DNA of 63,497 nt, counting the filler, from Reclinomonas americana ATCC 50394 (lineage: Eukaryota), in the NCBI GenBank assembly GCA_048213135.1. It is 11 parts of 11 records of this genome, joined end to end, with 100 filler letters (N's around TTAATTAATTAA, not from the genome) between each part and the next. Parts side by side here need not be neighbours in the genome. Positions count along the whole stretch, not along the records: positions 22,420 to 25,841 come from AFZH01022021.1; positions 25,942 to 32,970 come from AFZH01022022.1; 9 more parts are not named here. One strand, given 5' to 3'. Under the pieces are notes generated by a model that was given only the letters and a program-made list of their open reading frames with translations, had not been told where the DNA came from and did no database searches. How positions within the stretch are numbered: position 1 is the stretch's first letter; every line of letters begins with the position of its first letter. The position numbers were made by a program, and so were the translations under genes. Below, in pieces: positions 6,573 through 63,497 of the stretch.

Positions 6573-7076
6573 ATGACCAAAGCCTATGCGGTGCCCGTGC
6601 CGTCCGACAGCGTGCTAGCGCCACTTTATGGTGGCGCGGACCTGCTGGATGCGTACGCGATTCAGTTGCCGGCGGGCTCAAACAACGATCTCGAAGTGCT
6701 GGCGCGCGCTGGGTTCGAGCGGCAGGCGTGGTGGATTCGCGCGCTGACGCGGGTGCGCGATGTGGTGATGGCGACAGTCGGCGTCAAATCGTCTCGCGCG
6801 GTCGGTGCAGCTGCGGCGGCGCGGGGCCCGGTGATTGGCTTCTTTCCGCTGCTGTCGAAGACTGCGAGGGAGTTGGTGCTGGGCGAGGACGACCGGCATC
6901 TCGACTTCCGGCTCGCGATCCTGCTGCGCCCAGGGCCGGTGGGCGGCCGGGAGCTAGTCGTGGTGACCGTGGTGCATTGCCACAACTGGTTGGGGCGGAC
7001 GTACATAGCGGTGATCGCGCCGCTCCACCGCGTGATCGCGCCGGCGAGCCTGGAACAGGCGGCAAGGGCGAAATAG
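6573..7076 (+). CDS. DUF2867-family protein
   Basis: DLLDAYAI, WWIRALTRVRD, ELVLGEDDRHLDFR, TVVHCHNWLGRTYIAVIAPLHRVI pattern. Confidence 0.82.
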   Translation: MTKAYAVPVPSDSVLAPLYGGADLLDAYAIQLPAGSNNDLEVLARAGFERQAWWIRALTRVRDVVMATVGVKSSRAVGAAAAARGPVIGFFPLLSKTARELVLGEDDRHLDFRLAILLRPGPVGGRELVVVTVVHCHNWLGRTYIAVIAPLHRVIAPASLEQAARAK

Positions 7077-15656: not shown

Positions 15657-15756
15657 NNNNNNNNNNNNNNNNNNNNNNNNNNNNNNNNNNNNNNNNNNNN
15701 TTAATTAATTAANNNNNNNNNNNNNNNNNNNNNNNNNNNNNNNNNNNNNNNNNNNN
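15657..15756. other. Artificial linker/gap
   Basis: 44 N + TTAATTAATTAA (stops in all six frames) + 44 N. Confidence 0.99.
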
Positions 15757-19545: not shown

Positions 19546-20445
19546 ATGGATGAATTGAGCGAGTTTAATCTACGAATTGAGACAATCAGGAAGCTGAAAA
19601 TGCCATTAAGGACGATATCGATCTTTTTCGATGAGAAATCGTTCTCGAAGAATTTGATTGATTACGCGTTAGGTATCGCAGTTCAGCATAAGGCGCATGT
19701 CGCGGGAATATTTGTGAAGCCATTCGATTGGCCGTACGAACCGCACGAATCCTATGTCCGCGGCCGGGAGGCGATACGGGCATTAATCGAACATTACGAG
19801 ACGCAAGAAGGGCTGGCCGCTGACGTCGCAAGCGCCCGGTTTCAAGCCGCGGCCGAGCGCCACGGCGTCGGTTTCGAGTTTAGAACCCTGCGCGGAGTCG
19901 ATGCTGGCGACGAAGCTGCTCTGCACTCGCTTCATGCTGATCTGGTGATTGTCGGTCACGCTTGGCCGGGCAAGCTTCCGGGTAGTTGGTCGGCCGTTTC
20001 AATGTTGCTGGGAAGCGGAGTGCCCTTTCTGATCGTGCCAGAAGGCTGGAGCGCAAAAACGACACCAACGAATGTGACGCTCGCATGGAATGCCAGCCGA
20101 GTTGCCCGACGGGCGATAGCCGATGCCATGCCGTTGTTGAGCGCTGCTCAGTCGGTGCGCGTGGTCGTCGTGAATCCGGAAACGAACCCCTTGTACGGCG
20201 CGGCCCCAGGAGCAGATATCGCCCTCCTGCTCGCCCGTCAGGATATTAATGTCACCGTGCAGCAGCTTCAGACCGCGCCGGGGAAATCTGTCGCGGATGC
20301 TATATCCGCCGACGCCGATGAGAACGGTTCGGATCTGATCGTGATCGGCGCCTACGGCCATTCCCGGTCACGTGAACTCTTTCTCGGTGGCGTGACGCGT
20401 TCTTTGCTAAAGAGTGCGACGGTTCCTCTGTTGATCGCGCACTGA
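19546..20445 (+). CDS. Universal stress protein (tandem USP domains)
   Basis: HADLVIVG, LAWNASRVARRAIADAMPLL, DLIVIGAYGHSRSRELFLGGVTRSLL...PLLIAH; alternative start 19600. Confidence 0.93.
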   Translation: MDELSEFNLRIETIRKLKMPLRTISIFFDEKSFSKNLIDYALGIAVQHKAHVAGIFVKPFDWPYEPHESYVRGREAIRALIEHYETQEGLAADVASARFQAAAERHGVGFEFRTLRGVDAGDEAALHSLHADLVIVGHAWPGKLPGSWSAVSMLLGSGVPFLIVPEGWSAKTTPTNVTLAWNASRVARRAIADAMPLLSAAQSVRVVVVNPETNPLYGAAPGADIALLLARQDINVTVQQLQTAPGKSVADAISADADENGSDLIVIGAYGHSRSRELFLGGVTRSLLKSATVPLLIAH

Positions 20446-21068
20446 CTAACACTCTGCATTGTCTGAACGCGATTTCCCTTCTCGCCTGATTTGATCGCCG
20501 AGGTTCTGGGTGGCTGCGACGAACGCGGACTGAACGCGTCGTGGTTGCCCTCGTCTGGGGAGGGCATCAGCATAGGGCTCTACATCAACCAGCCCTCCCG
20601 GGTTGGCGGCCCAAAACGCATTTTCATCGCGAGCGCAACGCCGCAGCTTTTCTCTTGTCGCGATCTTGATCGAGATCCTGTCACGGTCAGATATCCACCG
20701 GCGACGGATACAAAGTGCTGAATGAGCTCCGGCCGGCTCGACGGCAAGAACGGATTTTGCAATCCTATGATCGTCAAAGGACTAGCCCTCGTTTTCTATC
20801 AGCTGAGGACCGCGCAGGCGTCGTAATGTCAGCTAAGCCGGAAGCACCGTCTGCCGATCCTCGGAAGCAGATAGCTGATTCGAAAGGGGGGCGGCGTTCG
20901 ACAAGCTCGACAAAAGAGGCCGTTCGCGAAGGGGCTGGCGTCGGACTGGCCAGTTCCCAGCAGGCGACTTCGAATTCAGTCGCCGAATGGAATTTTAGCA
21001 GTGCTATTAAAATATTCCATCTCGGTCATAGTCGACCAGCCCCATTTGGTGGAACCAGCTTCCTTCCA

Positions 21069-21374
21069 ATGCCTCCAGGCAACCCGGTTCCCGGCTATGT
21101 CTGCCAGGCGGCTCGTATTCTGCTGAACGTCTCGCAAGCATGGCTTTGGGAACGTGCCAAGGTTTCTCGGAAGACGATCAATGATTTCGAGAATGGCTTC
21201 TCTTCGCCGAAGCTCTTGTTGAACCATCGAATTAGGCGGGCATTGGAAGAAGCAGGCGCGCAGTTCGTCTTTGGTGAAGACCTGGTCGGCGTCGTCGTCT
21301 ACTCCTCAAAAAGCGAAGCTGCTCAGAGAGCGCGTTCAGACAAGCTCCGTGGAAATGACAGCCCGGCGCGTTAA
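21069..21374 (+). CDS. XRE-family HTH regulator (start uncertain)
   Basis: CQAARILLNVSQAWLWERAKVSRKTINDFENG...IRRALEEAGAQF, typical small alphaproteobacterial XRE. Confidence 0.8.
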   Translation: MPPGNPVPGYVCQAARILLNVSQAWLWERAKVSRKTINDFENGFSSPKLLLNHRIRRALEEAGAQFVFGEDLVGVVVYSSKSEAAQRARSDKLRGNDSPAR

Positions 21375-21387
21375 CCATATTTCGCAG

Positions 21388-21403
21388 AAATTGTAGACAA
21401 TTT
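21388..21403. promoter_or_regulatory. AT-rich palindrome, candidate operator
   Basis: AAATTGTagACAATTT in the AT-rich stretch after the XRE gene and upstream of the protease module. Confidence 0.45.
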
Positions 21404-21979
21404 TTATATTACTGATAAATTAATTCACGTTCAGCGCGCTGCCGTGGCTTCCGCGCGTTGGCCTTCATCACTGGCGGCGTTCCGCCGAAGCCTGTGCGTG
21501 GCCCTCGGTCAATTGGCCCGGCCCTCGACAATTCAAATCAACCGGTCTGGCACACGCGCTTCTCGCTGAGCATTCCGCACCACCCCCTGGCTATTGCTTG
21601 AATCAATGGAGCCCTGCATGGCGGTCCATCGGCGCTGTAGCTTGCGCAATCGACAATCTACGACTGGAAACGCTCCTCATGGGCGGCGTCGGTTCGCCGG
21701 CTCGCTCGGGTATCGAAGGTTGGCGGCCCAACTTCGACTGGCGGTCGAGCAGCTTGGCGACGAATACCAGTTGGCTTTGCTGGACGAGGATTTCGACGAC
21801 CTCGTCTGCGAGCCTGGCCGTTTGCTGCAAATGGCGAACCAAAGCTGAGCCTCGCCCAACCCCCGACTATCGCGCGCCTGGTCTTGCAGAAGGCCGCCAC
21901 AGTCGGCGCGCGCTCTGGCACGTCCAATAGCCCGCATGGCGCTGAAGCAATCTCCATCCTGAAGACCGAAGGAGACACG

Positions 21980-22319
21980 ATGCGACGAAGCAAATCCCAG
22001 TCGACGGCCAAAAATGGCAGCGATGCCCGCACCGACCTGCTCGCGCGCGCCTATCTCGAAATCATGGCGAGGGAGGCGGGGGCAAAGATCAAGCCGATGC
22101 TTCGCGGGAAGGTCGATGAAATCGATCGCCTCATCGAGGATCTCGATGGCGACATCGGTGATGCCGGGGTCACGCCGCTCCGCGCGGATCTCGCCGCTCT
22201 GACCATTCTGATTGCCCGCGCCATTGAAGCGGAGCCAGGTCTGGCGCGCCGGCTGCGACGTGAAGCTCCTGTCGTCGCCATCAGTACGCACAGCCCCCAT
22301 TCGTCGAGATGGCGAAGGA
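21980..22319 (+). CDS. 5' part of a gene, probably the N-terminus of the FtsH-like AAA/M41 protein continued after the gap
   Basis: RBS AAGGAGA, ATG 21980, open to the gap, no transmembrane helix seen; the link to the next block is inferred. Confidence 0.55.
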
Positions 22320-22419
22320 NNNNNNNNNNNNNNNNNNNNNNNNNNNNNNNNNNNNNNNNNNNNTTAATTAATTAANNNNNNNNNNNNNNNNNNNNNNNNN
22401 NNNNNNNNNNNNNNNNNNN
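22320..22419. other. Artificial linker/gap
   Basis: 44 N + TTAATTAATTAA + 44 N. Confidence 0.99.
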
Positions 22420-23197
22420 TTTCGTTTCACTAGTTCGGCCGCGAGGTTCCTTCCCGACGAGGACCTTGTTCCGTCGCGTGGCGGCGACGGGGGCAACAGG
22501 CGCCGACGTGGAGGCATTCGTCCGCCGCGCCAAAGGAACGGCCCGGCGCGCCGGTCGAGACCTTACCCTCGATGACCTGATGGCAACCGTGGCTGAGAAC
22601 GCGCCGGTTCTTCTGCCTCAGGACCGTTGGCGCATAGCAGTTCATGAAAGTGGCCATGCATTGGTCTCCCATGCGCTCAATACCGGCACCGTCTGGGGGA
22701 TCTCGATACACACGAGAGGCGGGTGCTTCGAATTCCAGAGCGAACTCACAGGTTCGGCGACGTTTGACCGCCTCCAGCGAGAGATCTCCGTGCTTCTCGG
22801 TGGTCGCGAAGCTGAACGCCTCGTCCTGGGCGAAGTGAGCATTGGTTCAGGGATGAATCTCGACTCCGATCTGGGCCGGGCGACTGGGTTCGCCCTTCTG
22901 ATCGAAACGCAGTGTGGAATGGGTCGACTAGGCAGAGCTTACATGGCCGAGGTGACGGGACTCGGCAGCTCGCCGGACCTCCACACCGCGGTGAACGCGC
23001 AGCTCAAGGAAGCAGAGGAGCGGGCCGCAGAAATCCTGGCGCCGCAGCAGGTGGCACTTGTGGCGCTGGCGACGGCCTTGGACCGGCGGGGCTATCTGTC
23101 CCGTGCGGAAATTGAAGCCATCCTCCGCGACAGCCGGCCGGCAGAACAGTCGGCTGTTGGAGAGCGGCCGGCTCAGGAATTCGCGAGGACCGCATGA
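22420..23197 (+). CDS. C-terminal part of an FtsH-like AAA ATPase / peptidase M41 protein
   Basis: AAA-lid-like TGATGADVEAFVRRA, zinc motif AVHESGHA, LLGGREAERLVLGEVSIGS, DSDL; Walker motifs not visible (presumably in the gap). Confidence 0.85.
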
Positions 23198-23406
23198 TGC
23201 GTCTCCATGAGGACGAAAGCGAGGCGTCGAGCCCTTCTAAGAACGGAGAGGCAATCCTCCTCGAGGAGGTCCACGCATTGGCCGCGAGCCTAGGGGTTGA
23301 GCCAGAGCGCGCGATACGCGCGCTCTCGATGGTCATCCGAAGGCGCACCGCGTTCGAGCGCCTCAAGCGCTCGGCCAACGAGCCCCTACGCGGCGCTCAT
23401 CGCTGA
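23194..23406 (+). CDS. Small hypothetical protein
   Basis: ATGA overlap with the M41 gene; 70 aa, helical character. Confidence 0.45.
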   Translation: MMRLHEDESEASSPSKNGEAILLEEVHALAASLGVEPERAIRALSMVIRRRTAFERLKRSANEPLRGAHR

Positions 23407-23467
23407 CCGAACTGCCTTTCTGACACCTGAGAAGGGGTCTCTTCCCTCAAAGACGAGGAGCGGCGAA

Positions 23468-24262
23468 ATGCGCCTGCTTGTGATGTCGGATCTGCATCTG
23501 GAGTTCACTTGCTTCAGCTTTCCGGACGATCTGCCCGAGTTCGATGTCGCCGTATTTGCAGGCGACATAGGGTGCCCGTTGGCGGCGACGATAGAATGGA
23601 TCGAGCGCAAGCGTCGTGGGCCACTGCGCGGCCGTCCGGTCGTCTTCGTGCCGGGCAACCACGAGTTTTATGGCACCGAGATCAATGGCGCGTTGAGCGA
23701 TGGTCGCGCCCGGGCCGAACGGTATGGAATCCATATGCTCTCGCCAGGCGGCGTTGCGTTGGCTGGCGTGCGCTTTGTCGGATCGACGCTCTGGACCGAC
23801 TACCAACTGTTTCGAAATCCGCGGAGCGCTCGCCGGGAAGCGCAACGAGAGATGAACGATCACAGGCGGATAAAGATTGGCCAAGGCGAGCAGTGCCGGC
23901 TCTTCAGACCTGCAGACGCTGCGGAGTTTCATCAGCGCGACGTATCCGAAATGACCCGGCTACTTGCTGAACCATTCGATGGAACTACCGTCGTGGTAAC
24001 TCACCACGCGCCTCATCCGAATTCGGTTCAGTCGATCTATGACAGAGACCCTTTGGCCCCAGCATTTGCATCTGATCTATCCGAGGTGATTGAGCGCTTT
24101 CAGCCTGATCTTTGGATCCATGGCCACGACCATGGATCCCACGACTATTACGTCGGAAAAACACGCATTCTGACCAACCAGGCTGGTTATCCCAGGCGCG
24201 GCGGAATCCGTGAGAACCCGGACTTCGATCCTCGGCTAGTCGTCCAGGTCGGAACGAAATAG
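23468..24262 (+). CDS. Calcineurin-like metallophosphoesterase
   Basis: SDLHLE, AGDI, VPGNHEFY, VVTHHAP, WIHGHDH; RBS GAGGAG. Confidence 0.95.
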   Translation: MRLLVMSDLHLEFTCFSFPDDLPEFDVAVFAGDIGCPLAATIEWIERKRRGPLRGRPVVFVPGNHEFYGTEINGALSDGRARAERYGIHMLSPGGVALAGVRFVGSTLWTDYQLFRNPRSARREAQREMNDHRRIKIGQGEQCRLFRPADAAEFHQRDVSEMTRLLAEPFDGTTVVVTHHAPHPNSVQSIYDRDPLAPAFASDLSEVIERFQPDLWIHGHDHGSHDYYVGKTRILTNQAGYPRRGGIRENPDFDPRLVVQVGTK

Positions 24263-24358
24263 GCGCCGCAGCGACAAACAATTGCCTCCGCTCATCCTGT
24301 GAGCGGGTGAGAGGTCGCCTGTTGTTCGCCGGACACTCAGATCGCAAGGAGAACGGCC

Positions 24359-24706
24359 ATGCGAACGCTGGAAGAAAAGCGTGCGGCTGCAATCGAGGAT
24401 CTGCGGCGGCTCAAAGACGGCTGGCGTCCGACCGAAGCGGACCTGTTGGACGCCGTTGGCATTGAGCGATGGGAGGTAAGAGGAAGTCCAGGGACCCGCG
24501 AGCAATTCCTATGGGGATTCGCGATCAACCATCCGCGCTTGGGAAGTCGGGCGATCCGAACGAGCAGGGTGCTCTGGATTAGCGAGGACGGGACCGTCGC
24601 TCGCACATTCAGTCGTTGGTATCGATTAGGCGAGCGGGCTAGGTCGATGCCAAACAAGCCGACAGTCGACGAGCCCGAGGCGGACGTGCTGGGGCCCCCT
24701 CTTTAA
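24359..24706 (+). CDS. DUF6634-like protein
   Basis: PTEADLLDA...W...LWG...HPRLG...IRTS...ARTFSRWYRLG signature; RBS AAGGAG. Confidence 0.78.
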   Translation: MRTLEEKRAAAIEDLRRLKDGWRPTEADLLDAVGIERWEVRGSPGTREQFLWGFAINHPRLGSRAIRTSRVLWISEDGTVARTFSRWYRLGERARSMPNKPTVDEPEADVLGPPL

Positions 24707-24747
24707 GCGTGGCGATGAAGGCCACCTCCGCACTAGATTTCTGAAGC

Positions 24748-25356
24748 CTATTCGAGTCGCTGGGATAACTCGCTTTCAATCTGTCGGTCGTATCGAACGA
24801 TCGCAGCCTTCAAAAAGGCCGGGACAGACTCCTCGTGCAGGCACACGACTTTTGGGCCTTTGCGACCCTTCAACGTTACTCTCAGTTTTTGACCACTGAC
24901 GGCTACTTCCCTGCCTGCCAAGGTGAGATCGACTAGGCGCTTCATTAGTTCCGATGCCGCCGGACGCGCATATTCGGGAACGAGCTTCATTACTCGGGCT
25001 GGCGTAAAGAGAGGCGGAGCGATTTCCTTGCACAGGGCTGGGATGTCGTCGGCGTGCAGGCACCAGCGTCCCTGCCGATAGACGCGGAACACCTGAAAGC
25101 GCACGACCTCCTTGCCCATAAGCGGTTGGCGGCCAGCCTCAACGCAGGAAATGGCGTTTCGCCAACCCCTCAGTATCCGATTAAGGTCGGAGCCCGCGAG
25201 ACCTGTGCGCAAAACGTCGGGCGCAGTGAGCCATCCTTCCGGCTTCGGCTGCAATAACGCTACCGAGCCCCGCCCAACAAGACGGTCCCAGGCAGGGTGC
25301 ATGCCGCTGGTAGACCTTAAGCTGAGCAGAGATTCTGTCGTCTCAGGCGTCTTCAT
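24748..25356 (-). CDS. Hypothetical basic protein with internal duplication
   Basis: 202-aa ORF with RBS GAGGAG; repeated motif CLHADDIPAL / CLHEESVPAF. Confidence 0.65.
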   Translation of the reverse strand: MKTPETTESLLSLRSTSGMHPAWDRLVGRGSVALLQPKPEGWLTAPDVLRTGLAGSDLNRILRGWRNAISCVEAGRQPLMGKEVVRFQVFRVYRQGRWCLHADDIPALCKEIAPPLFTPARVMKLVPEYARPAASELMKRLVDLTLAGREVAVSGQKLRVTLKGRKGPKVVCLHEESVPAFLKAAIVRYDRQIESELSQRLE

Positions 25357-25569
25357 ATGATGCTCCTCTGATCAGGAGCAGGGATAATTTGATTGAATGA
25401 AAGCCACACGCGTTAATAGGAATGTCCCGATTTGGAACTGCCTCAGGTCGATGGCGTGCGCATCTTTAAAATTGCAGACTCTGAATAGGTACTTGCAGAA
25501 CCAAAATAACAACCAAGCTCAAACGACGTATATATTCATATTTACAGACCATGGCGCGACAAAGTACGT

Positions 25570-26310
25570 TCTCCGTTATGTCTAACGGTACGATCATACG
25601 CTCCCTCTCGGGATGCTTTAGCGCGGGCATTTTGCCTGCCGTCGCACCGTTCGTGTCGACGGCAGCATAGCCCGTCCACTACGGCAAATCCCCCAAGAGC
25701 GAACGAGTCGGGATCAACTTCCCGACGATCGACCGTTGTCAGTGTCCAGCCTCTGGACACTGAGCAACTGTTGCTGAAGGGCCGACGGGGTCTTCAGAAC
25801 CGGTTGCGACTATGTCGCAACATCCCTTCCCTAGCAGGCTGNNNNNNNNNNNNNNNNNNNNNNNNNNNNNNNNNNNNNNNNNNNNTTAATTAATTAANNN
25901 NNNNNNNNNNNNNNNNNNNNNNNNNNNNNNNNNNNNNNNNNCTAGGCCAGGGGAAGGACCAGTCGGAGATCCAAGTCACCAGTTCAGGCTGGCTAAATGA
26001 AACGCCGGGAAAGCGTTGGCGCGCTTCCCCGGCGTTGGAACGGGCTTGGTCGCCCTGTTCCGCGGAGCATTGTTAGACACCCGCCCCTGAAGGCGGAGCT
26101 TCGTTCAGTGAAATCAACATGCACGGAGAGCAATGATGATCATTCTGACGAAGACCTGAAGAACTCAGGCGTACACCCAAGATTTTCACGGCTATGCTTC
26201 CGCTCTCTAGAGGCCCATTTCTGGCCCTCTACGATAACAGCTCTGCATAACCGCTCAGTCGTTCGACATCAATCCCCGGAGCGAACCTCCGCGGGAATTG
26301 GAGACGGTTA
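25570..26310. ncRNA. Candidate large structured non-coding RNA or leader (spans one gap)
   Basis: More than ten stem-loops nearly end to end with no convincing ORF; see findings. Strand undetermined. Confidence 0.5.
25842..25941. other. Artificial linker/gap
   Basis: 44 N + TTAATTAATTAA + 44 N. Confidence 0.99.
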
Positions 26311-26311
26311 C

Positions 26312-26614
26312 ATGAATTCATCCCTACCAATGCCCTACCAGATGCATTCAAATTCTCAGAATGCAGGCTCGGGCGCAGCGACTTCGCTTGCTGCTGGCCG
26401 CGATCGGACCGGCAAAAAGCGCACAAAGCAGGCAAAGCCGGGCCGGATTCGGTCGGCTCTGAGCTCAGACCTCGAAGCTAGCGTGCACGAGGAGTCCTTC
26501 GAGCTCGACCTCCTGCTCCCGACGACGAGCGGGTGGCGTCGACCTTCGCTCCGCATCAGCGCGGACTGCGAATTCGGCGTCATCCGCGACGTGGCACTCT
26601 CCTTCGACAGGTGA
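26312..26614 (+). CDS. 100-aa protein whose C-terminus resembles the TnsB catalytic-domain beta-strands
   Basis: RBS GGAG at 26300; ELDLLL...RPSL...D...GVI...LSFD aligns by eye to the local TnsB; stop 4 bp before the next ATG. Confidence 0.6.
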   Translation: MNSSLPMPYQMHSNSQNAGSGAATSLAAGRDRTGKKRTKQAKPGRIRSALSSDLEASVHEESFELDLLLPTTSGWRRPSLRISADCEFGVIRDVALSFDR

Positions 26615-26618
26615 ACCG

Positions 26619-27413
26619 ATGATCGATCTCATCAAAACTCTTCCTGCGCTCGACGCGGACTCCCCCTCGTTTGCGAGCCCGCCGTGCCTGGGGCTGCAAG
26701 TTCAAACAGCTTCACCGCTGCCGTCGCCCTCTCGCATGGGCTCAATCAGCGTCATCGAGACCTTCAAGGCCAGGAATTCGATCTTGGCTTTCGACAGCCT
26801 GGAGGCCGCTGCCTTTCACGAGGCGGCAGCGGATCCGCATGTCGAACTGATCGTGCCGCGTCCTCACCGATTGCTGGCTGACGTGACGGTCGGAGGTCAG
26901 TCCCGCATCGTGGCGTTCCGTCCGCTGCTCCTGACCACGGGAGCGCGCGGGACCAGCGTGGTAGCTGTCCGCTATTCCTGGGAGCGCGCCAAGCCGGACT
27001 GTCGGGAGCTCGAAGCTGCGCTGACGCGCGTCTATCGTCGCGATCATGGTGTGGGGCTTCGCTGGCGCACCGAACTCCAGCTGTTTGCCGAACCGCGCCG
27101 CTTCAATCGACGTCGGCTGGCCTCCTGTGCGGAGCGCGCTGATCCGGAGCTGACGGCCTCGATCATCTCAATGCTTCAGCGCTCGGATGGCCGAATCACC
27201 GTCAAGCGGCTCAACCGCGAGCTTGGCGGGAAGCTCGGCTGGCAGACTTTCCTTGAGCGGCTCATCCCGATCCACGTCGACGGGTTCATCGAACTCGCGC
27301 TCGAACGAGAGCTCACCGAGCTGACGCTCGTCAAGCTCGCGGCGCCGCCGCGCAGTCCACGCGCAGTGAAGCCGGATCGCTCTCGCGCCGGCTCGGTCCT
27401 GGAGTTCGCGTGA
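26619..27413 (+). CDS. TnsA-like protein with degenerate nuclease active site
   Basis: TnsA-like pattern (FK..., DSLE, DPHV, TELQL..EPR..N, C-terminal wHTH), but FRPLL and VAVRY replace PD and (D/E)xK. Confidence 0.72.
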   Translation: MIDLIKTLPALDADSPSFASPPCLGLQVQTASPLPSPSRMGSISVIETFKARNSILAFDSLEAAAFHEAAADPHVELIVPRPHRLLADVTVGGQSRIVAFRPLLLTTGARGTSVVAVRYSWERAKPDCRELEAALTRVYRRDHGVGLRWRTELQLFAEPRRFNRRRLASCAERADPELTASIISMLQRSDGRITVKRLNRELGGKLGWQTFLERLIPIHVDGFIELALERELTELTLVKLAAPPRSPRAVKPDRSRAGSVLEFA

Positions 27414-28126
27414 TGAAACGGAAGCGACCTTCAGTTCATCCGTCGAAGTTGGGCATTCACGCGGGAGCGCAGCCGTGTGGGCCCGACTGGTCGCGGGGCT
27501 CACACCAGTCTTGGCAGGGAACATTCGCGAGCGGGAAGGTCCTCGGGCCGTCACCCTATCGATCTTTCCTTGAGCGGGACTGCCTCACCCTTCTCGAGGC
27601 CAATCCGGCAATCACCGCCTTTAGCGTAGAGCCGCATATGTTGACGTACTCGATCCCGAATGCCGCCGGCGGCTTCGAGCCGCGGACGTACGTCCCGGAT
27701 TTTGGCCTGATCACGGCAGACGGGCAGATCTTGATCGTCGACGCCAAGGCCGAGGCGTTGCGGCAGATGGCAAGCTGGACAAGGCGCGAACCGCATATCC
27801 GGCAAGCCTATGCCGTCCAGCACGGCGTGCGGTTTCTGGTGCTTACGGAAGCGGCGATCCGTAAGCAGCCACGCCTCGCAAATTGCGAGGAGATGCTGGC
27901 GCATCGCGAGCCGGGAAATGACCCCGCCGCACTCTCGGCTATGCGGGACGTCCTCGCCATGGTCGAGGGTTCCTCGACCATTGGCGCTCTGACCGCCGCA
28001 GCGGCGCTCGTTTCTCCACCAGGTCAAGATCGCGCCTTCACCGCGATCATGCGCCTCGCGCTTCGAGGTGAGATCAAGATCGACCTCTCCCATCCGTTTT
28101 CTGCGACCACGGCTGTTCGCCGCTGA
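27410..28126 (+). CDS. tnsA: TnsA endonuclease
   Basis: RSFLERD, EANPAI...EP, YVPDF, IVDAK (PD-(D/E)xK intact), LTEAAIRKQPRLAN. Confidence 0.9.
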   Translation: MMKRKRPSVHPSKLGIHAGAQPCGPDWSRGSHQSWQGTFASGKVLGPSPYRSFLERDCLTLLEANPAITAFSVEPHMLTYSIPNAAGGFEPRTYVPDFGLITADGQILIVDAKAEALRQMASWTRREPHIRQAYAVQHGVRFLVLTEAAIRKQPRLANCEEMLAHREPGNDPAALSAMRDVLAMVEGSSTIGALTAAAALVSPPGQDRAFTAIMRLALRGEIKIDLSHPFSATTAVRR

Positions 28127-28150
28127 TCGTCGTGCATTCAGGTCAACCTC

Positions 28151-30340
28151 ATGACTTTGCAGTTTTCTCACTCCACCTTTTTGTCGCCTCTTCCGGTCCC
28201 TCGTTTCGAGTTCGACCAAGGACAGCCCCTGTTCATCAACGGCTCCGAATGCCTGTTCGAACGGCGGATCGGTGAGCGGCACCAGTTTCTGGACATTGCC
28301 TCGAAGGAGCCTCACTTCCTCACGGACTCCGAGGTGGCGGCGCTCGCCGCCGATGGTCAGTTTCATCCGGGTTTCGAGGATCCTCGCAGGCACGCGGGCG
28401 GCGTCGTGCATCCGTTCGCGGTTTCCGACGAGCAGAAGGTACAGAACCTCCGCAAGCACGAGTACGTGGTCGCCTGTTTGCAGGCGCCAGCGGGTTTCGC
28501 GCGCTCACGCAAACGCCTTGAACCCGCGATCGCAGCCGTCGCCAAGCAACGCGGCGAAAAGGCCCCCCATTTCACGACGGTATTGGCGTGGATCGACGAG
28601 TCTCAAATGCTCGGCGATCAGTTTGGCACCGCTGCCCATACAGATCGTTTCGATCTGCGCGGGCCACGAGTTCCGAAGCTCGCCGCCATCCACGAACATG
28701 CCCTTGAGCGGGGTATCAAACGCTGGCTTCTGCATCCGAAGATGACCATGCTCTTGGCCTACGCCAAGGTCGTCTCGACGATGCGCGCCTACGAGCGGAA
28801 GTTGGGAAAGTCGGTCGTCGCGCGGCTCGACCAGACAATTCTGGATGAGCAGGGGCGGCTTAGGATTCCCTCGCTCTCGACCTTCCAGCGCCGGTGCAAT
28901 GCGATCGATCGCTACACGCGGGACCTACACAAGATCGGTCCTCGCCACGCCGCGCTCGCGAACAGGACGTACACAACACGCGAGAAGCCCGACATCCCTT
29001 ACGAGCATGTCGAGGTCGACCACTGCACGCTCGATCTGCTGGTCGTTCACGAGCAAGGCGCGATTCTAGGGCGTCCCGACCTCGTGACGTTCCGCGATCG
29101 CGCGACCGGCATGATCCTCGGTATCGGGCTCGGATTTGAAGTTCCCTCCTACGCGAGCTTCCTCGAGGGACTGCGTCACGCGACTTTTCCCAAGGATCTC
29201 CGACCCTATCCGAGCGTGACCAATCCCTGGCCGTGCTATGGGCGCATCCGCAACCTCTACGTCGACAACGCCCTGCATTTCATCGGCGACAGCATCAAGG
29301 CCGCCGGGAAAGAGCTCAAATTCAACCTTGTGAAGTTCCGTCCGCGCGAGCCATGGCTCAAGGGTGCGCTAGAGCGGTTTTTCGGCACAATCAATACTGG
29401 CCTCGTCCATATGCTCCCCGGTACGACGCTCCAGAACATTCTGGAGCGTAGGAAGATCGAGGAGCTCGACGAGCCGTGCCTGACCCTTCGAGAGTTCAAG
29501 GCGCTGCTGCATTTTTGGATCTGCGAGATCTATCACGCGCAGAACAATAAGGGCCTTGGACTGATCCCAGGTATCGGGCTGCCACCGCTGGCTGCTTGGG
29601 CGGATAAGGCCAAAGATCTCAGGACTCCGCCTTTGCCCTCTCCGGACCTGTTCACAGCGCTCGCGGGAGAGGTCAAGTACAAGACGATTCAGAACGACGG
29701 CATTGCTTGGGATCACATCAAATACGAAGGCGCGGGCCTTTCAAAGATCTTGACAAACCCGAAGCATCGGAACCGCGGACGGCACGGCGGAGCAACCTCC
29801 TACAAGGTGGTCAGAAACCCATCTGACCTCTCGAAGATCTTCGTCGTGAACCACCACACGGACGAGATCGAAGAGATTCCCGCCGCTGAGGCATATCGGA
29901 AGTACACGTCCGATCTGACCGCATTTCAGCATGACGTGATGCGGGCGCACGCGCGCGCGCAACGCGACGGCGCGATCAATGTCGAAAAGCTGATGGCCGT
30001 GAAAGACCGCCTTTCGGACATCGTCGCCGCATTGCTCCAAGGGAAACAGCGGCGGGTCATGTCCAGGCGATTGGGCCGATACCTGGATGCTGAAGAGCGA
30101 CGCCGCATTCCGAGCCAGATCGCGCTGCCGAACAGCGATGCGGCGGCCGCCGCTGCGCACATCGACGTTGTTGCGGAAGCTGCCGCGCCTGTCGAGCTGA
30201 AGCAGCCTTCGTCGACGGCAGCCTCCGCCGAAGCAGCTCCGGGTTCGGCCCCCACGCTGCTCGGTTTCGCTCCTCTCGAACGGGACGATGAAGACGACGC
30301 GCTCTTCGACCAGCTCAAGTCCGAAAAGAATTGGAAGTGA
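28151..30340 (+). CDS. tnsB: TnsB DDE transposase (Mu/Tn7 type)
   Basis: HVEVDHC (D), LYVDNALHF (D), KGALERFF (E), PSLSTFQR HTH, Mu-like C-terminal region, acidic tail. Confidence 0.95.
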   Translation: MTLQFSHSTFLSPLPVPRFEFDQGQPLFINGSECLFERRIGERHQFLDIASKEPHFLTDSEVAALAADGQFHPGFEDPRRHAGGVVHPFAVSDEQKVQNLRKHEYVVACLQAPAGFARSRKRLEPAIAAVAKQRGEKAPHFTTVLAWIDESQMLGDQFGTAAHTDRFDLRGPRVPKLAAIHEHALERGIKRWLLHPKMTMLLAYAKVVSTMRAYERKLGKSVVARLDQTILDEQGRLRIPSLSTFQRRCNAIDRYTRDLHKIGPRHAALANRTYTTREKPDIPYEHVEVDHCTLDLLVVHEQGAILGRPDLVTFRDRATGMILGIGLGFEVPSYASFLEGLRHATFPKDLRPYPSVTNPWPCYGRIRNLYVDNALHFIGDSIKAAGKELKFNLVKFRPREPWLKGALERFFGTINTGLVHMLPGTTLQNILERRKIEELDEPCLTLREFKALLHFWICEIYHAQNNKGLGLIPGIGLPPLAAWADKAKDLRTPPLPSPDLFTALAGEVKYKTIQNDGIAWDHIKYEGAGLSKILTNPKHRNRGRHGGATSYKVVRNPSDLSKIFVVNHHTDEIEEIPAAEAYRKYTSDLTAFQHDVMRAHARAQRDGAINVEKLMAVKDRLSDIVAALLQGKQRRVMSRRLGRYLDAEERRRIPSQIALPNSDAAAAAAHIDVVAEAAAPVELKQPSSTAASAEAAPGSAPTLLGFAPLERDDEDDALFDQLKSEKNWK

Positions 30341-59000: not shown

Positions 59001-61643
59001 AATGTCAACTTGACGACGTTCAACTCGCAGATTCCTGGTCAGCAGCTCTCTGTGGTCCGCTACTCCCAGGCGTTTGGCGCGTTCAGCCGCGTGAAGAACT
59101 GCGGCGGCTTCCTCACTGCCGAGCAGCAAGTCAACAACTTTGTGTTTACCACCGTTGCCAACTTTACGCTGTCGACCGTGTATGTGGCGCAGACCGGAAA
59201 CGACGCCACGTGCTGTGGGCAGCAGTCGTTACGTAGCGTCACACTCACTTGCTCATTTTGTTCTCTTCCGTTTCCATTTCATTTGCTCACGACGTTCTCT
59301 TTCATTCTCGTGTACACAGGAACCCGTGCAAGACTCTGCGATTCGGTATTGAGACGACCAACGATGGGCGCACGCTGAGTGTCGGACCTGGCTTGTACAA
59401 CACGCCAGACGATTGTCAGTTGTCTGTCACTTCGGCTATCACTGTGGCCGGCGCAGGCCCTGGGCAGACGGTGGTGGACTGTCAGGGCGCTGGTCCGGCG
59501 TTTACTTTGGACGTTGGAGCCACTCGCTCCACGGTGGTGACAGGCTTCACCATTCAGAACGCCATGGCCACGCAGGGTGGCGGCATGCTTATTCGCAGCA
59601 CGGCATCACCGACGGTGCGTAACGTGCAGTTTATCAACAACTCCGCCTCCGGCAACGGTGGCGGCGCCATGGCGATTGTGGATACGGCTGCGCCGCTGGT
59701 GGACACTGTGTCGTTCTCTGGAAATCGTGCTGTGGCCGGCAACGGCGGTGCACTTCTTGTCAGCAGCACCGCCAACAACACGGTGGTCACTGGCTGCACG
59801 TTCTCCAACAACACGGCACTGACGGGCTTTGGTGGCGCAATCTACGACACTGGTGCATCGGCGACCTATGTGTCGCTGACTGTGCAGAATAACCGAGCAC
59901 AGTACGGCGGTGGTGTTGCGTTTGCGCAGTCGCGCTCCAGCGTCCAGTCGCCGACGGCGATTTCCAGCAACATTGCGTCGTTGAGCGGTGGTGGTCTCTA
60001 CTTTGTCGGCTCCACTACCTCGCTGACGGGCGTGACGCTGTTCAACAACACGGCTCAAGGCCAACTGTACTCGGACACATCGGTGCAGGGTGGTGGTGGT
60101 GCCTTCTTCAGCGGCGGCAGCGACACATTCAGCGGCTTCACGCTCAACCAGAACTCGGCTGTGTACGGTGGAGGCTTTGTGGTTTCCGACAGCGGTAACT
60201 CGCGTATCCTCGGCCTCTCCTCCTCCTCGCTGTCGCAAGTGACCAGCAACAGAGCCACGACTGGAGCCGGCGGCCTCGTGTTCCGCTCACAGCCTGTGGT
60301 GTCGCAAGTCAACTTTTCCGGCAACACAGCCTCGCTTACAGGTGGCGGTTTGCAACTCGATCTCACTAACGGCACCGTCAATGCGGTGAGTAATTCGTAT
60401 TGTGCAGAGTTCATGTTGTGTGGTGAATACTTTGCTCATGTGTTGTTGTTGTCGTCATGCAGTGCTCGTTCTCAAGCAATTCGGCCGTCGCCGGTGGTGG
60501 CGTGTACGTGCAGCGGCAGACGTCGGTGACTCCAACAATTCCCACAGTGTTGATCCAAACTTGCACGTTCAGCGGTAACCGTGCTGTCACTGGCGCGTCG
60601 TCGAATTCGGCTGGTGTGACGACGGCTGGAGGTGACATTGGTGCCGCGAGTGCACAACTCTCCGTGTCTGGATGCTCCATGCAACAGGGCGGCAGCACTG
60701 GCACCGGCGGCTCGATTTCAATCACGCGCAGCACCATTGCCACGATCACAGGATCCACTATCACTGGCTCCACGGCCACCAGCAATGGCGGCGGTGTAGA
60801 AGTGTCGGTGTCATCTACATTGACGGTGGTGGGCGGCACTATCTCCGGCAGCAAGTCGACCGGTGCTGGCGGCGGTGGTATCTACGTGTCCGCCTCCACG
60901 GTGAATCTCAGTGGTGGCCTGACGATTACCTCTTCGTCGGCCACGCAAGGTGGCGGCGTGTACCTGGTGAGTGCCACTGCGCAGCTGTTGCAGGTGACAC
61001 TCTCTAGCAACTCGGCCATCACTTCCGACGAGTCGCAAGGCGGCGGCATTTACTCGGTGTCGTCGGTGATCACGGCCTCGTCGGTGACGCTCACCGGTAA
61101 CTCGGCGCCTGTCACCGGAGGAGCCGGGCATATTATCGCCTCCAAGTTCACGCTGCAGGGCGCGTCCGTGCTGTCGACGAACAGCGCTCCCAACGGCGGC
61201 GCCTTCTTCCTCGATTCCACCACATTCACCGTGTCGAATGCTCAATTCACCTCCAACACGGCGTCTTCCGGCAATGGCGGTGCACTGTACGCTGTGTTGT
61301 CGCGGCTGTCGTTGACGTCAGTGTCTCTCGGCTCGAATACGGCTGTCAATGGCCGCGGTGGCGCCCTGTTTTGCCTCTCTGGCTCTCAAATGGACATTAG
61401 CGGCTCTGGAACACCGAGCACTTTCTCGAGCAACAAGGGCACGGTCGCCGGTGGCGCGCTCTACTTTGAGTCTTGCCCGGCGACTGTGAGTGGTGCAACG
61501 TTTACCAGCAACTCGGCACAGGCTGGTGGTGCGGTGTACGCGTTCAGCAGCACGTCACTTGCGGTCTCTGGGAGCACCTTCAACAAGAACACGGCCGTCG
61601 ACCGCGGAGGCGGCCTGGCCATCGACACACTCTCGACGGTCAC
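41166..61643 (+). CDS. Giant multi-exon S/T/G/V/A-rich secreted beta-helix surface protein (across three gaps; 3' truncated)
   Basis: Hydrophobic leader IVLLMCFVVLVTVSLATHALA, then WGGGSGDWQVGTNWVGGNAP; long beta-strand repeats; C-terminal YVAQTGND..CG..SNPCKTL and Pmp-like GGA(I/L/V)/FxxN repeats. Single-gene status across the gaps is inferred. Confidence 0.8.
44215..44298. repeat. (TG)n microsatellite in the repeated intron
   Basis: About 42 TG units; equivalent (GA)n(TG)n tracts at about 46057-46119 and 46935-47020. Confidence 0.97.
46179..46278. other. Artificial linker/gap
   Basis: 44 N + TTAATTAATTAA + 44 N. Confidence 0.99.
47646..47745. other. Artificial linker/gap
   Basis: 44 N + TTAATTAATTAA + 44 N. 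Confidence 0.99.
49053..49152. other. Artificial linker/gap
   Basis: 44 N + TTAATTAATTAA + 44 N. Confidence 0.99.
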
Positions 61644-62019: not shown

Positions 62020-62282
62020 TCGCCGGGGTTTCCCCTGATTGTTGCGGGAAGAGAACGCGAGCACCATTCACACGCTACACACGCATCGTCGCCCCCCTTC
62101 GCGCCAACGCAAGGTGAGTGTGTCGAAGTGTTTTAGATTGACGTGTGCAACCGCACGCACGTGCTCGACACAGCGAGAAGCAGTCGACTGTGTGTAAATG
62201 TGCGTCAAAGTGCCCAAGTCGACATGTCCGGCCTCACGAGTTTCCCTCCCTCTCTCTCTCTCCCGTTTTTCTTGCAGTCGGA

Positions 62283-63497
62283 ATGCCGCTGCTCGACAAG
62301 AAGACTGTCGACTTGGAGGTCAGTGTCTGCAAGCACACACGTGTGCCTCTTGCATGCACGACAGAGAGCAGTCGAAGTGGATTTTACATGCGTTGTGTAC
62401 AGGCTCCGCCGGCCGATCTGCAGCCGCAGGATGAGGTGTTTGTGTTTCGGCCGACCAGAGAGGCCTTTACGGACTACGAGTTGCGACAGTGACCGCCAGA
62501 CACGCTCTCCTCTCTCGTGCATGTGGAGTTGTCTCACTCATCGCATGCACATTGGCAGAGAGTTTGCCGACAAGGTCATGCAGTACCTGCTGCCGCAGTG
62601 GGAATGCGCCGTCAGTGGCCGCAATAAGCTGTCGTTTCTCGACGCCATGCTGTCGGAGCAGCGTGAGCGTGCGAAGTTGCAGTCGTTCCCGCCCGCACCG
62701 CTCGACGAGGTCTTCGCTCGGTTCCTCTTTGCCAGTTGAGGCGACTTGGTGTTCCTGCTGCAGTCGCTCCCTCCATGTCCTTTCGCTTTACTCATGCACG
62801 TGTTTCTCTGCGTGTCTGTGTGTGACAACCCCAGACAAGCACTGCAGCATCACGAAAATCTCGAATGAGCTGACGGAGCTGTGTGGTGCCGTGTGCTTTC
62901 CGGGCGAGAAGGTGCAGCAGGCTGTCAATCGGAAAGAGTTTTGTGTCCTTGGCGCTGCATGAGCACGTGTGTGAGAGAGAGGGAAGAGCATCTGTGTGAC
63001 TCATGTGTGCACACAGAGAGTACGAGATTCTGCGGCCGCTGAAGACGGAGCGCGAGTTCGACCCCGACGACGAATCTGTTATGGCGATCCGCGACGTGTT
63101 GCAGAGTGTGGATGCCGAGCACCCACCGGCGTTCTACGCCGTGCGATCGTTGGGTGACAAGTCGCTGACTTGCGTCCGCGGTGGTGCCCACGTGGTGTTG
63201 CGTCTGCATGCGTGGTCTGTTGTGTGTGGTGAGTATTCACTGGACCGCGTCGCAGGCGACCATTCAAGCTGCCCAAGGCAGCCGTCCAGCGATGGGTACG
63301 CTCTCATGTGTACGATCCGAGTGTCACCACAAAGCCGGTGTCGGCCGACGAAGCCAGTGATCGTGCTCTGGCCCTCACACGCGACATTTGTGACAAATTT
63401 GACTTGCCATTCGTGCCGCCACCCACTGCACCGCCGCGCAAGAAGCGCACGGTTAGTGGACACTCGTTTGCGACCTACCTCGACGCGACCGCTGGAG
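62283..63497 (+). CDS. WAC-domain chromatin-remodelling subunit (ACF1/BAZ1A/Itc1-like), multi-exon, 3' end beyond window
   Basis: Spliced exons 62283-62318, 62403-62479 and 62559-62734 give MPLLDKKTVDLEAPPADLQPQDEVFVFRPTREAFTDYEEFADKVMQYLLPQWECAVSGRNKLSFLDAMLSEQRERAKLQSFP, matching the ACF1/BAZ1A N-terminal WAC pattern. Confidence 0.88.

Follow-up and report, generated by a model that had tools for sequence, protein, structure and literature searches.

We analysed a stretch of 63,497 nt from the assembly GCA_048213135.1 of Reclinomonas americana ATCC 50394 (hereafter, the window), and in particular the DNA that precedes ORF1, a small gene, and a Tn7-like transposition operon. We propose, at about an even chance, that the region from approximately 25573 to 26311 is a long leader, folded and untranslated, at the 5′ end of the mRNA that carries ORF1 and the transposition genes. 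An earlier note on this DNA had described about 700 nt of nearly continuous stem-loops here; the stem-loops were found as described, and their extent was reduced to about 630 real nt after removal of a 100-nt artificial linker. As for their meaning, the note had offered either a long regulatory leader or a trans-acting RNA of a Cas-less Tn7-like element. The first is favoured because the DNA is non-coding, its divergence is in part below neutral expectation, its stems carry compensatory changes, the ribosome-binding site (RBS) of ORF1 is paired in the predicted structures, and the core of the region always stands before a gene of the ORF1 family; the second was not retained, for reasons given below.

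As comparison reference we used G001, the nearest related genome, which belongs to the same genus. The features of the region are the following (MFE, minimum free energy; copies of the core are those of the window, G001 and three other genomes of the genus, G762, G720 and G726):

25475–25572, no strand: A+T-rich, poorly conserved spacer (44% divergence from G001, 55 of 98 columns identical)
25573–25677, plus strand: conserved core (model R1), a three-way junction of helices P1–P3 that competes with the hairpin 25636–25665
25578–25670, plus strand: uncertain, candidate upstream open reading frame (uORF) of 30 codons, with ATG and stop (TAG or TAA) kept in 5/5 copies
25583–25739, plus strand: domain of conformation B, 5′ AACGGT-ACGATC with GATCG-ACCGTT, MFE structure of the window and G001
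25739–25821, plus strand: three perfect hairpins of 11, 6 and 8 bp
25825–25957, plus strand: hairpin CCTTCCC/GGGAAGG, split by the linker 25842–25941 (letters 25835–25841 suspect)
25990–26150, plus strand: most conserved block of the locus, comprising the 15-bp-class hairpin 26001–26036, the hairpin 26037–26061 and the start of a branched domain
26057–26223, no strand: stretch covered by a 167-nt metatranscriptome contig (run X19)
26208–26231, plus strand: hairpin with two compensatory changes relative to G001 (G-C to A-T and C-G to T-A)
26248–26310, plus strand: terminal domain that pairs the Shine-Dalgarno sequence of ORF1 (GGAG, 26300–26303), −26.6 kcal/mol, z −2.9
26312–26614, plus strand: ORF1, 100 aa, with a disordered N-terminal half and a small beta C-terminal domain

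Conservation and folding of the region

Between the window and G001, the core (25573–25677) diverged by 5.7% and the block 25990–26150 by 3.1% (156 of 161 positions identical), while the stretches 25678–25830, 25944–25989 and 26151–26311 diverged by 17.5%, 21.7% and 15.3%, respectively. Since divergence at synonymous sites (pS) in six flanking genes was 0.20–0.49, both blocks lie several-fold below the neutral expectation.

All the local stems of the earlier note proved complementary at the coordinates it gave (25573–25588, 25636–25665, 25707–25726, 25739–25763, 25774–25797, 25803–25821, 26001–26036, 26037–26061, 26208–26231 and 26248–26310). The helix said to close a multibranch domain, GCGGAGCAT/ATGCTTCCGC, occupies 26062–26070 and 26194–26203, the position 26203 given for it being its end; the complementarity stood, and the closure is possible but is one alternative only, the MFE fold pairing 26062–26068 with about 26234–26240. 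G001, where one pair of this helix becomes A-G, gives it no support. When the 113 pairs of the local stems were compared with G001, four double changes still gave Watson-Crick pairs and four changes led to G-U, whereas about 1.35 pairs with both sides changed would be expected at 10.9% divergence. The four Watson-Crick double changes fall in the stem 25774/25797 (C-G to T-A), twice in the hairpin 26208–26231 and in the outer helix of 26248–26310 (A-T to G-C, beside a T-A to T-G change in the same helix); the 11-bp stem of the group 25739–25821 shows one T-A to T-C break. Judged from these alignments, the changes in stem pairs favour selection on pairing.

Folding energies were compared with those of 100–200 dinucleotide shuffles, a check that the earlier note had proposed, and the region came out far more stable than its shuffles. 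Precisely, the plus strand of the left block (25560–25841) folded at −127.6 kcal/mol versus −90.3 ± 4.9 for the shuffles (z −7.6), and that of the right block (25942–26330) at −150.1 versus −126.0 ± 6.4 kcal/mol (z −3.8); on the reverse strand the z-scores were −7.9 and −5.5, respectively. Among 302 N-free windows of 200 nt (window 1 to about 31000; mean z −0.45, standard deviation 1.42), 25601–25800 ranked first (z −9.8), and those starting at 25501, 26001 and 26201 ranked 4th, 5th and 25th. Perfect hairpins (stem ≥7, loop 3–14) numbered 87 in the window, or 1.37 per kb, and the 300-nt windows densest in them start at 25551 and 25601. The stem-loops are real, conserved and non-random.

The palindromes might act or persist as DNA, with no role of RNA, as sites of a regulator or a transposition protein, as cruciform-prone DNA or as quasi-palindromes made by template switching. 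We consider this rather unlikely. Both strands fold alike, as it would predict, template switching can mimic compensation (for example in the perfect 9-bp hairpin of G001 at 26208–26231), and a divergent 202-aa gene adjoins the region; that gene, however, is absent at the other copies of the core. Moreover, the approximately 12 palindromes differ and have no common motif, bulges and G-U pairs occur in their stems, three lineages conserve nested and mutually exclusive long-range pairings, and neutral processes do not explain a divergence of 3–6% against 20–49% at synonymous sites. Nor was a repeated 16-mer (≤3 mismatches) or a TnsB-type array found: the G001 equivalent of 24545–26360 gave, with 16-mers at ≤3 mismatches, three unrelated pairs and no multi-copy direct repeat, and no Tn7-end-like array of direct repeats (three or four TnsB-type repeats of about 20 bp) was found from the 202-aa gene to ORF1. 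Between 22420–26400 and the rest of the window, no exact repeat of at least 14 nt was found, bar one self-palindrome.

A portable core upstream of ORF1-like genes

A DNA search of 111 genomes of the genus returned G001 and two weak matches, both to one 80-nt stretch of the left block, which proved to be homologous elements. We described the core by a covariance model, R1 (105 positions, 22 pairs), which scores 107–116 bits in the window, G001, G762, G720 and G726. Across the 111 genomes, R1 had a match in seven, of which G001, G762, G720 and G726 are real and the other three (≤31 bits) lie in coding DNA; on 151 genomes of the family, a sample that included 146 from 52 other genera and was searched with strict filters, there was none outside the genus. 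Each carrier genome holds one match, and each copy of the core lies 129–635 nt upstream of an ORF1-like reading frame and is co-oriented with it.

What follows the core differs. In G762 and G720 it is an 81-codon open reading frame (ORF), with a frameshift in the G720 copy, and after it the Kiwa defence operon of KwaA (E 8e-70) and KwaB (E 2e-121); in G726 it is a 40-codon ORF cut by an insertion sequence (IS) at the contig end. The homology between G762 and G726 is limited to about 202 nt, from just 5′ of the core through a downstream ACCGTT segment. The 81-aa protein of G762 aligned with the C-terminal domain of ORF1 in hhalign (34 columns, 35% identity, E 2.8e-5, probability 74%) and, on this comparison of sequence profiles, is likely a distant homologue of that domain. 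As core and small ORF1-family gene stand together before different accessory operons, the recurrent unit is that pair. At the G726 copy (locus L092, contig C29, 9602–10320) the core is followed by a truncated ORF1-like frame, and the C-terminal fragment of a transposase, which may be ISL3-like, lies on the opposite strand at the contig end.

These contexts bear on the idea of an RNA working in trans with TniQ or with TnsA* (the TnsA-like paralogue of the operon) in a Cas-less Tn7-like element, which we now hold to be highly improbable. The region is directly 5′ of the tns operon, and its right block (25942–26311) is so far unique to this element. Against this, the core occurs before Kiwa in G762 and G720 and, in G762 and G726, without any match to the window's TnsB-family profile (G720 has a partial match, on a contig other than that of the core); nothing guide-like or repeat-like appeared in the Rfam and repeat searches; and the core is absent upstream of the other operons found with TnsB-family profiles, 56 loci in all. 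Precisely, the region was not found by blastn and nhmmer upstream of the 53 loci L008–L060, of which 16 have close relatives (40–49% identity), nor upstream of L062–L064 (42–53%; tblastn with the window's ORF1 and TnsA*), the DNA upstream of L062 being also negative by blastn against G001 and by R1. In a family sample of 301 genomes and the 111 genomes of the genus taken together, a homologue search by DNA found G001 and the two weak core matches only; the TnsA* protein found G001 only among 401 genomes of the order.

The core might also be a remnant or single copy of a mobile element of the type of miniature inverted-repeat transposable elements (MITEs), bounded by AACGGT...ACCGTT. Terminal inverted segments, a length of 160–200 nt, unrelated contexts and the IS beside the G726 copy agree with this; one copy per genome in all carriers, a 5′ half better conserved than the ends and a fixed orientation to the ORF1-like gene do not, and no target duplication turned up, although no search was aimed at target duplications. 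We regard such an origin as very unlikely. Two hairpin patterns searched in G001 were each single-copy, and the plasmid sequences searched held no match to the region.

Alternative structures of the core

Helices P1 (core positions 12–22 with 69–79), P2 and P3 are paired in 110 of 110 cells across the copies, versus 26–53% in slid controls, and vary among them by one A-U to U-A double change (in G726) and five switches from G-U to Watson-Crick. The 3′ strands of P3 and P1 double as the 5′ arm of the hairpin 25636–25665, whose 3′ arm has in turn an alternative partner downstream, in a small hairpin whose loop carries the stop of the candidate uORF. Some 150 nt downstream, a second ACCGTT offers the 5′ strand of P1 another partner, which is present in 5/5 copies as (A/C)CCGTT. 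In silico, P1–P3 (conformation A) and the hairpin 25636–25665 with the long-range helix (conformation B) are mutually exclusive. Forced folds of the two conformations are 3.8–5.2 kcal/mol apart in G762, G720 and G726, and the MFE flips between them among the five segments of 249 or about 200 nt.

Conservation is much higher in the 5′ half of the core than at its ends or in its 3′ half. An exact invariant 15-mer had 14 matches in 401 genomes of the family, no more than the reversed-pattern control, and the 13 outside G001 all fail R1. One match of an invariant 21-mer pattern on a viral contig was discarded as a chance match within a coding region, with no R1 score.

ORF1 and its ribosome-binding site

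The claim that 26248–26310 buries the RBS of the first ORF was borne out by prediction in the window and in G001, with partly different partners: in G001 the GGAG has another upstream partner, a CUCC that arose by substitutions specific to G001 (−25.2 kcal/mol). The GGAGG of G762 is covered by a local hairpin.

Among 1.84 billion protein representatives, ORF1 has a homologue of 103 aa, P0121 (55% identity, E 3.9e-18), with the same start Met; the longest contig of P0121 is 22,493 nt, the same size as that of P0002, a TnsB relative of 86%. ORF1 evolves fast, with a ratio of non-synonymous to synonymous substitution rates (dN/dS) of 0.64 versus G001. The AlphaFold model has a five-strand beta unit at residues 61–100 (predicted local distance difference test, pLDDT, 86–93) and 60 disordered N-terminal residues. 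A fold search gave no PDB match at E 0.001 or better. In Foldseek, the beta domain returned weak rows only; several were TnsB beta-barrels of Tn7 and of CRISPR-associated transposons (CASTs), at E 0.2–0.5 and 20–28% identity over about 43 columns, which are not significant, if curious in the case of a gene at the head of a tns operon.

Coding potential of the region

A 205-aa ORF (25997–26614) is in frame with ORF1, and in G001 this frame is broken by a 2-nt insertion and a TGA. Residues 1–105 have no homologue among the 1.84 billion representatives. As the homologue covers residues 106–205 only and starts at the same Met, ORF1 starts at 26312 and the DNA upstream of that position is non-coding in any long frame.

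The candidate uORF has 29–30 codons, its frame is kept in 5/5 copies with one in-frame 3-nt indel, and it has a Shine-Dalgarno-like motif (AGGAG or AGGGG) in the copies of G762, G720 and G726 and none in the window and G001. Between sequence types, 13–15 of the 30 codons differ non-synonymously, with 8/9/12 differences at the three codon positions. Its translation is possible.

We considered whether hidden small protein genes, namely this ORF (25578–25670) and one of 62–71 codons from 25997, explain the conservation, and judged it quite unlikely. The start, stop and frame of the 30-codon ORF in all five copies, its in-frame indel and the Shine-Dalgarno-like motif of the G762 type speak for it, as do, in the first 155 nt of the frame from 25997, four of five differences from G001 at third positions and four conservative amino-acid changes. 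This third-position count is, however, marginal (about 0.05 by a binomial estimate), ATG 25997 has no clear Shine-Dalgarno and is directly followed by the 15-bp-class hairpin, and residues 1–105 have the negative search just given. As for the uORF peptide, 13–15 of 30 residues differ, all three changes between the window and G001 are non-synonymous, another frame is also open, and a 15-nt stretch at codons 20–24 does not vary, even synonymously, among the copies.

Continuity of the two blocks

The window has the form of a pseudomolecule: ten linkers (15657–15756, 22320–22419, 25842–25941, 32971–33070 and six more), each built as N44-TTAATTAATTAA-N44, connect its 11 contigs; the 12-mer TTAATTAATTAA has ten copies in the window (0 expected), with 44 N on either side of every copy. 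The linker at 25842–25941 interrupts the structured region, the left block of which is the end of the contig 22420–25841 and the right block the start of the contig 25942–32970. Without the linker, the non-coding DNA of the region amounts to about 630 nt.

Both contigs are colinear and directly adjacent on one contig of G001 (C19) at 89–91% identity, window 22420–25830 corresponding to 69272–72673 and 25944–32717 to 72676–79466. Over 6816 nt, junction included, a metagenome contig from JGI (L061) matches G001 at 100% identity, and hence is a second assembly across the junction and no independent sequence. Logan contigs of four runs were also aligned to the G001 version, those of X3 and X4 covering parts of the region only and giving no complete third allele. 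In run X1, the alignment of a 552-nt contig begins at the junction and extends to the right, no indel being listed at that place, and the last 30 letters of this contig's 86-nt overhang equal window 25795–25824; since it joins both blocks, they adjoin in a window-type strain too. The earlier suggestion that the blocks adjoin, made from the pairing of CCTTCCC with GGGAAGG across the gap, was thus right by G001, L061 and the X1 contig, and because they adjoin this pairing is an ordinary local hairpin with a loop of about 8–9 nt. The last seven letters of the left contig (25835–25841) are incompatible with an indel-free join to the right contig; keeping them would make the loop longer than in G001, against which the gap-free X1 alignment argues, and they probably arose as an artefact at the end of the assembly or represent a minor variant. 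The case is a warning that pseudomolecule linkers can fall within real features.

Transcription, known families and points against a leader

The X19 contig lies on G001 positions 6790–6958 and carries the window-type allele, with the same two 1-nt deletions as the X1 contig. In Rfam 15, searched with window 24500–27500 at E up to 10, there were seven chance-level rows and none near its gathering threshold, which agrees with the earlier statement that the region cannot be assigned to a known family. The best row, AS-pc01 (RF02875), a weak alignment at 25961–26058, reached 24.9 bits versus a gathering threshold of 79 (E 0.2) and was taken as chance. The listings and abstracts of a literature search contained no leader or non-coding RNA (ncRNA) for Tn7-like tns genes or for Kiwa. 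In PMC8649781, ncRNAs of Tn7-like elements are annotated with Rfam at gathering thresholds and Kiwa is listed among the cargo.

One or more stand-alone small RNAs acting in trans could be encoded here, the operon being merely a neighbour, which we deem improbable. The core does behave as a discrete module, about 200 nt long and mobile between contexts, the X19 contig is short (167 nt) and internal, and the invariant 15-nt stretch could be a seed. On the other side, no plus-strand terminator-like site was found in the region, G001 has one forward match to the invariant 15-mer and no reverse one, hence no copy of its complement, and the core is always directly 5′ of a co-oriented ORF with a hairpin-covered RBS.

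Several results weigh against a leader with the properties proposed here. The X19 contig may derive from carried-over DNA, and neither strand nor ends nor level can be read from contigs. A simple scan found no promoter, with no sigma-70 consensus site in the spacer 25475–25572, and no plus-strand terminator-like site in 25357–26311. The minus strand folds as well as the plus strand or better, RNAalifold support is similar on both strands, and the asymmetry between G-U and A-C is not decisive as an indicator of strand. As both strands fold alike, the assignment of strand rests on synteny and not on pairing; it is from the fixed synteny with ORF1-like genes that we infer the plus-strand RNA to be the active form. 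Among the 15 changed stem pairs, seven are disruptive (six one-sided mismatches and one two-sided break), and with two sequences only, template-switch mutation in palindromes could mimic compensatory change. Covariation is thin, since the whole region is covered by two independent sequences and the core by three lineages. The shuffle control of P1–P3 was not significant (100/500), and the sequences compared were also those from which this structure had been derived. In the window and G001, conformation B is the more stable by 11–21 kcal/mol, so a thermodynamic switch is not evident there, and the leader of the G762 type is not unusually stable (z −1.0 to −2.4). Lastly, the DNA upstream of other operons of the transposase family is not consistently structured.

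The transposition operon and its surroundings

The neighbouring genes are the following:

24748–25356, minus strand: divergent 202-aa gene (ORF), no family match
26619–32970, plus strand: operon of a TnsA-like paralogue (264 aa), a TnsA-like protein (238 aa), a TnsB-family protein (729 aa), a TniB/TnsC ATPase (342 aa) and TniQ, the last cut by the contig end

The tniQ ORF (31363–33018) runs into the linker and is thus cut. Relative to G001, dN/dS was 0.26 for the TnsA-like paralogue and 0.08–0.13 for TnsA, TnsB and TniB. The 729-aa protein belongs to a TnsB-like family (Mu-transposase C-terminal) of Alphaproteobacteria, with 121 matches, most at 40–55% identity. This transposase (28151–30340) has no Pfam match at E 0.01 and a weak NCBIfam match to IS481 (E 3e-6), and PF09299 (Mu transposase C-terminal) is present in about one in four of its relatives. 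The TnsB-based loci were 59 (53 from genomes and 6 from metagenomes), with complete tnsA-tnsB-tniB-tniQ operons among them; L061 being identical to G001, none of them adds an independent copy of the leader. Upstream of the operons, no folding window below z −3.7 was seen in L012, L009 and G694. In two distant relatives of the operon (Enterovirga, Methylobacterium), single strongly folding windows (z about −6.5) occur at L018 3500–4300 and L019 3200–3500, 0.1–1 kb upstream of the first tnsA-like gene and without sequence similarity to the region.

The 202-aa gene has no match in Pfam, NCBIfam, PADLOC or PHROGs, is 86% identical to its G001 copy (dN/dS 0.16) and has no homologue beside the core copies of G762 or G726. 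The spacer 25475–25572, between this gene and the core, is presumably the site of divergent promoters.

Further upstream of the tns operon lies a module (window 21980–24706; G001 L003 1833–5561; G694 L077 5383–9137) with a 738-aa AAA ATPase, IetA-like by PADLOC (E 5e-25) and matching FtsH/peptidase M41 in its C-terminal part, a 115-aa ORF and a metallophosphoesterase that is a PDC-S10 candidate (E 6e-14). G694, another genome of the genus, has the IetA-like/phosphoesterase module beside a different tnsA-B-C-Q operon, with unstructured intergenic DNA, and the homology ends at window 24636. Identity to G001 falls from 98.3% (20052–22319) to about 90% (22437–32717) across the contig break within the 738-aa gene, of which the window lacks about 1 kb (G001 L003 2270–3287); this suggests recombination or different histories on either side.

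An A+T-rich segment at 21391–21660, 17 nt after a 219-aa ORF, begins with TGTAGACAATT and continues with three repeats containing GACAAT or GGTCAAT. We take it, from its resemblance to Tn7 ends, as a possible right end of the transposon with TnsB sites; no left end was found in the window. The assemblies of the window (32970) and of G001 (C19, end 79573) both break within the 3′ portion of tniQ, at almost the same point, which suggests repeat or variable DNA just downstream of it. The contigs at 33071–61643 encode mostly proteins without Pfam match, possibly cargo; 19 of 22 ORFs tested in 33433–62736 have no family (E 1e-5), and the other three have a Ser/Thr kinase domain (37385–38257), a beta-helix/PMP-repeat (59249–60526) and a weak WAC_Acf1 DNA-binding match (62143–62736).

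A proposed composite leader and its implications

The leader that we favour would be composed of three parts. The first is the portable 5′ core of about 105–165 nt, whose mutually exclusive pairings would be, numbering its segments, 1:2 (P1 with P2 and P3), 2:3 (hairpin 25636–25665), 3:4 (the uORF-stop hairpin) and 1:last (the long-range helix), and which may be read by ribosomes as the 30-codon uORF. The second would be the lineage-specific stable hairpins, including the strongly conserved 25990–26150, and the third the terminal domain that is predicted to base-pair the ORF1 Shine-Dalgarno. In its default fold the leader would occlude initiation at ORF1, so that the transposition genes would stay low, and a refolding begun in the core would open the RBS. 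This refolding could be set off when ribosomes translate the uORF, when a factor binds (the ORF1-family protein, for instance) or by the kinetics of folding during transcription. Where transcription starts, the switch itself and what triggers it are all parts that we infer.

Some of these properties have counterparts in known systems. The transposase mRNAs of IS10 and IS50 are inhibited by fold-back of leaders that sequester the RBS; likewise, an upstream leader segment is here predicted to pair the Shine-Dalgarno of the first gene, which would limit transposase synthesis, whereas the present leader is far longer (about 630 nt, about 12 hairpins) and has a 5′ module in common with a defence operon. 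Leader peptides control attenuators of the trp type and translational attenuation leaders of the erm/cat type. As in those, a short candidate uORF overlaps the 1:2, 2:3 and 3:4 segments and has its stop in the 3:4 loop; unlike them, there is here no terminator hairpin with a U tract and no run of regulatory codons, the uORF of the window and G001 is without Shine-Dalgarno, and 550–640 nt separate the uORF from the regulated start. With three-way-junction riboswitch aptamers the core shares a P1 that encloses two hairpins (about 68 nt), and with an expression platform the use of the 3′ strands of P1 and P3 by a competing downstream hairpin. It differs from a riboswitch in that nucleotides of the core junction and loops vary (J2/3 is 4–7 nt, L2 and L3 differ between types) while the helix sequences are conserved, and in that no Rfam riboswitch match or ligand is suggested. 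A CAST-like guide RNA would be obligatorily tied to the transposition genes, which the core is not.

It is also conceivable, though unlikely, that the core and the ORF1-family beta-domain protein form a portable sensor cassette, of which the 630-nt version of the window would be an expanded form with 25990–26150 as a second functional RNA domain. The RNA switch would then answer to a metabolite, to the state of the ribosome or to the small protein, and would gate horizontally mobile operons (transposition genes in the window, Kiwa in sister species).

If the region is the leader that we favour, a non-CRISPR Tn7-like operon would be under post-transcriptional control, and an RNA module outside Rfam 15 would be common to a transposon and a defence system, which hints at a common control of mobile cargo.

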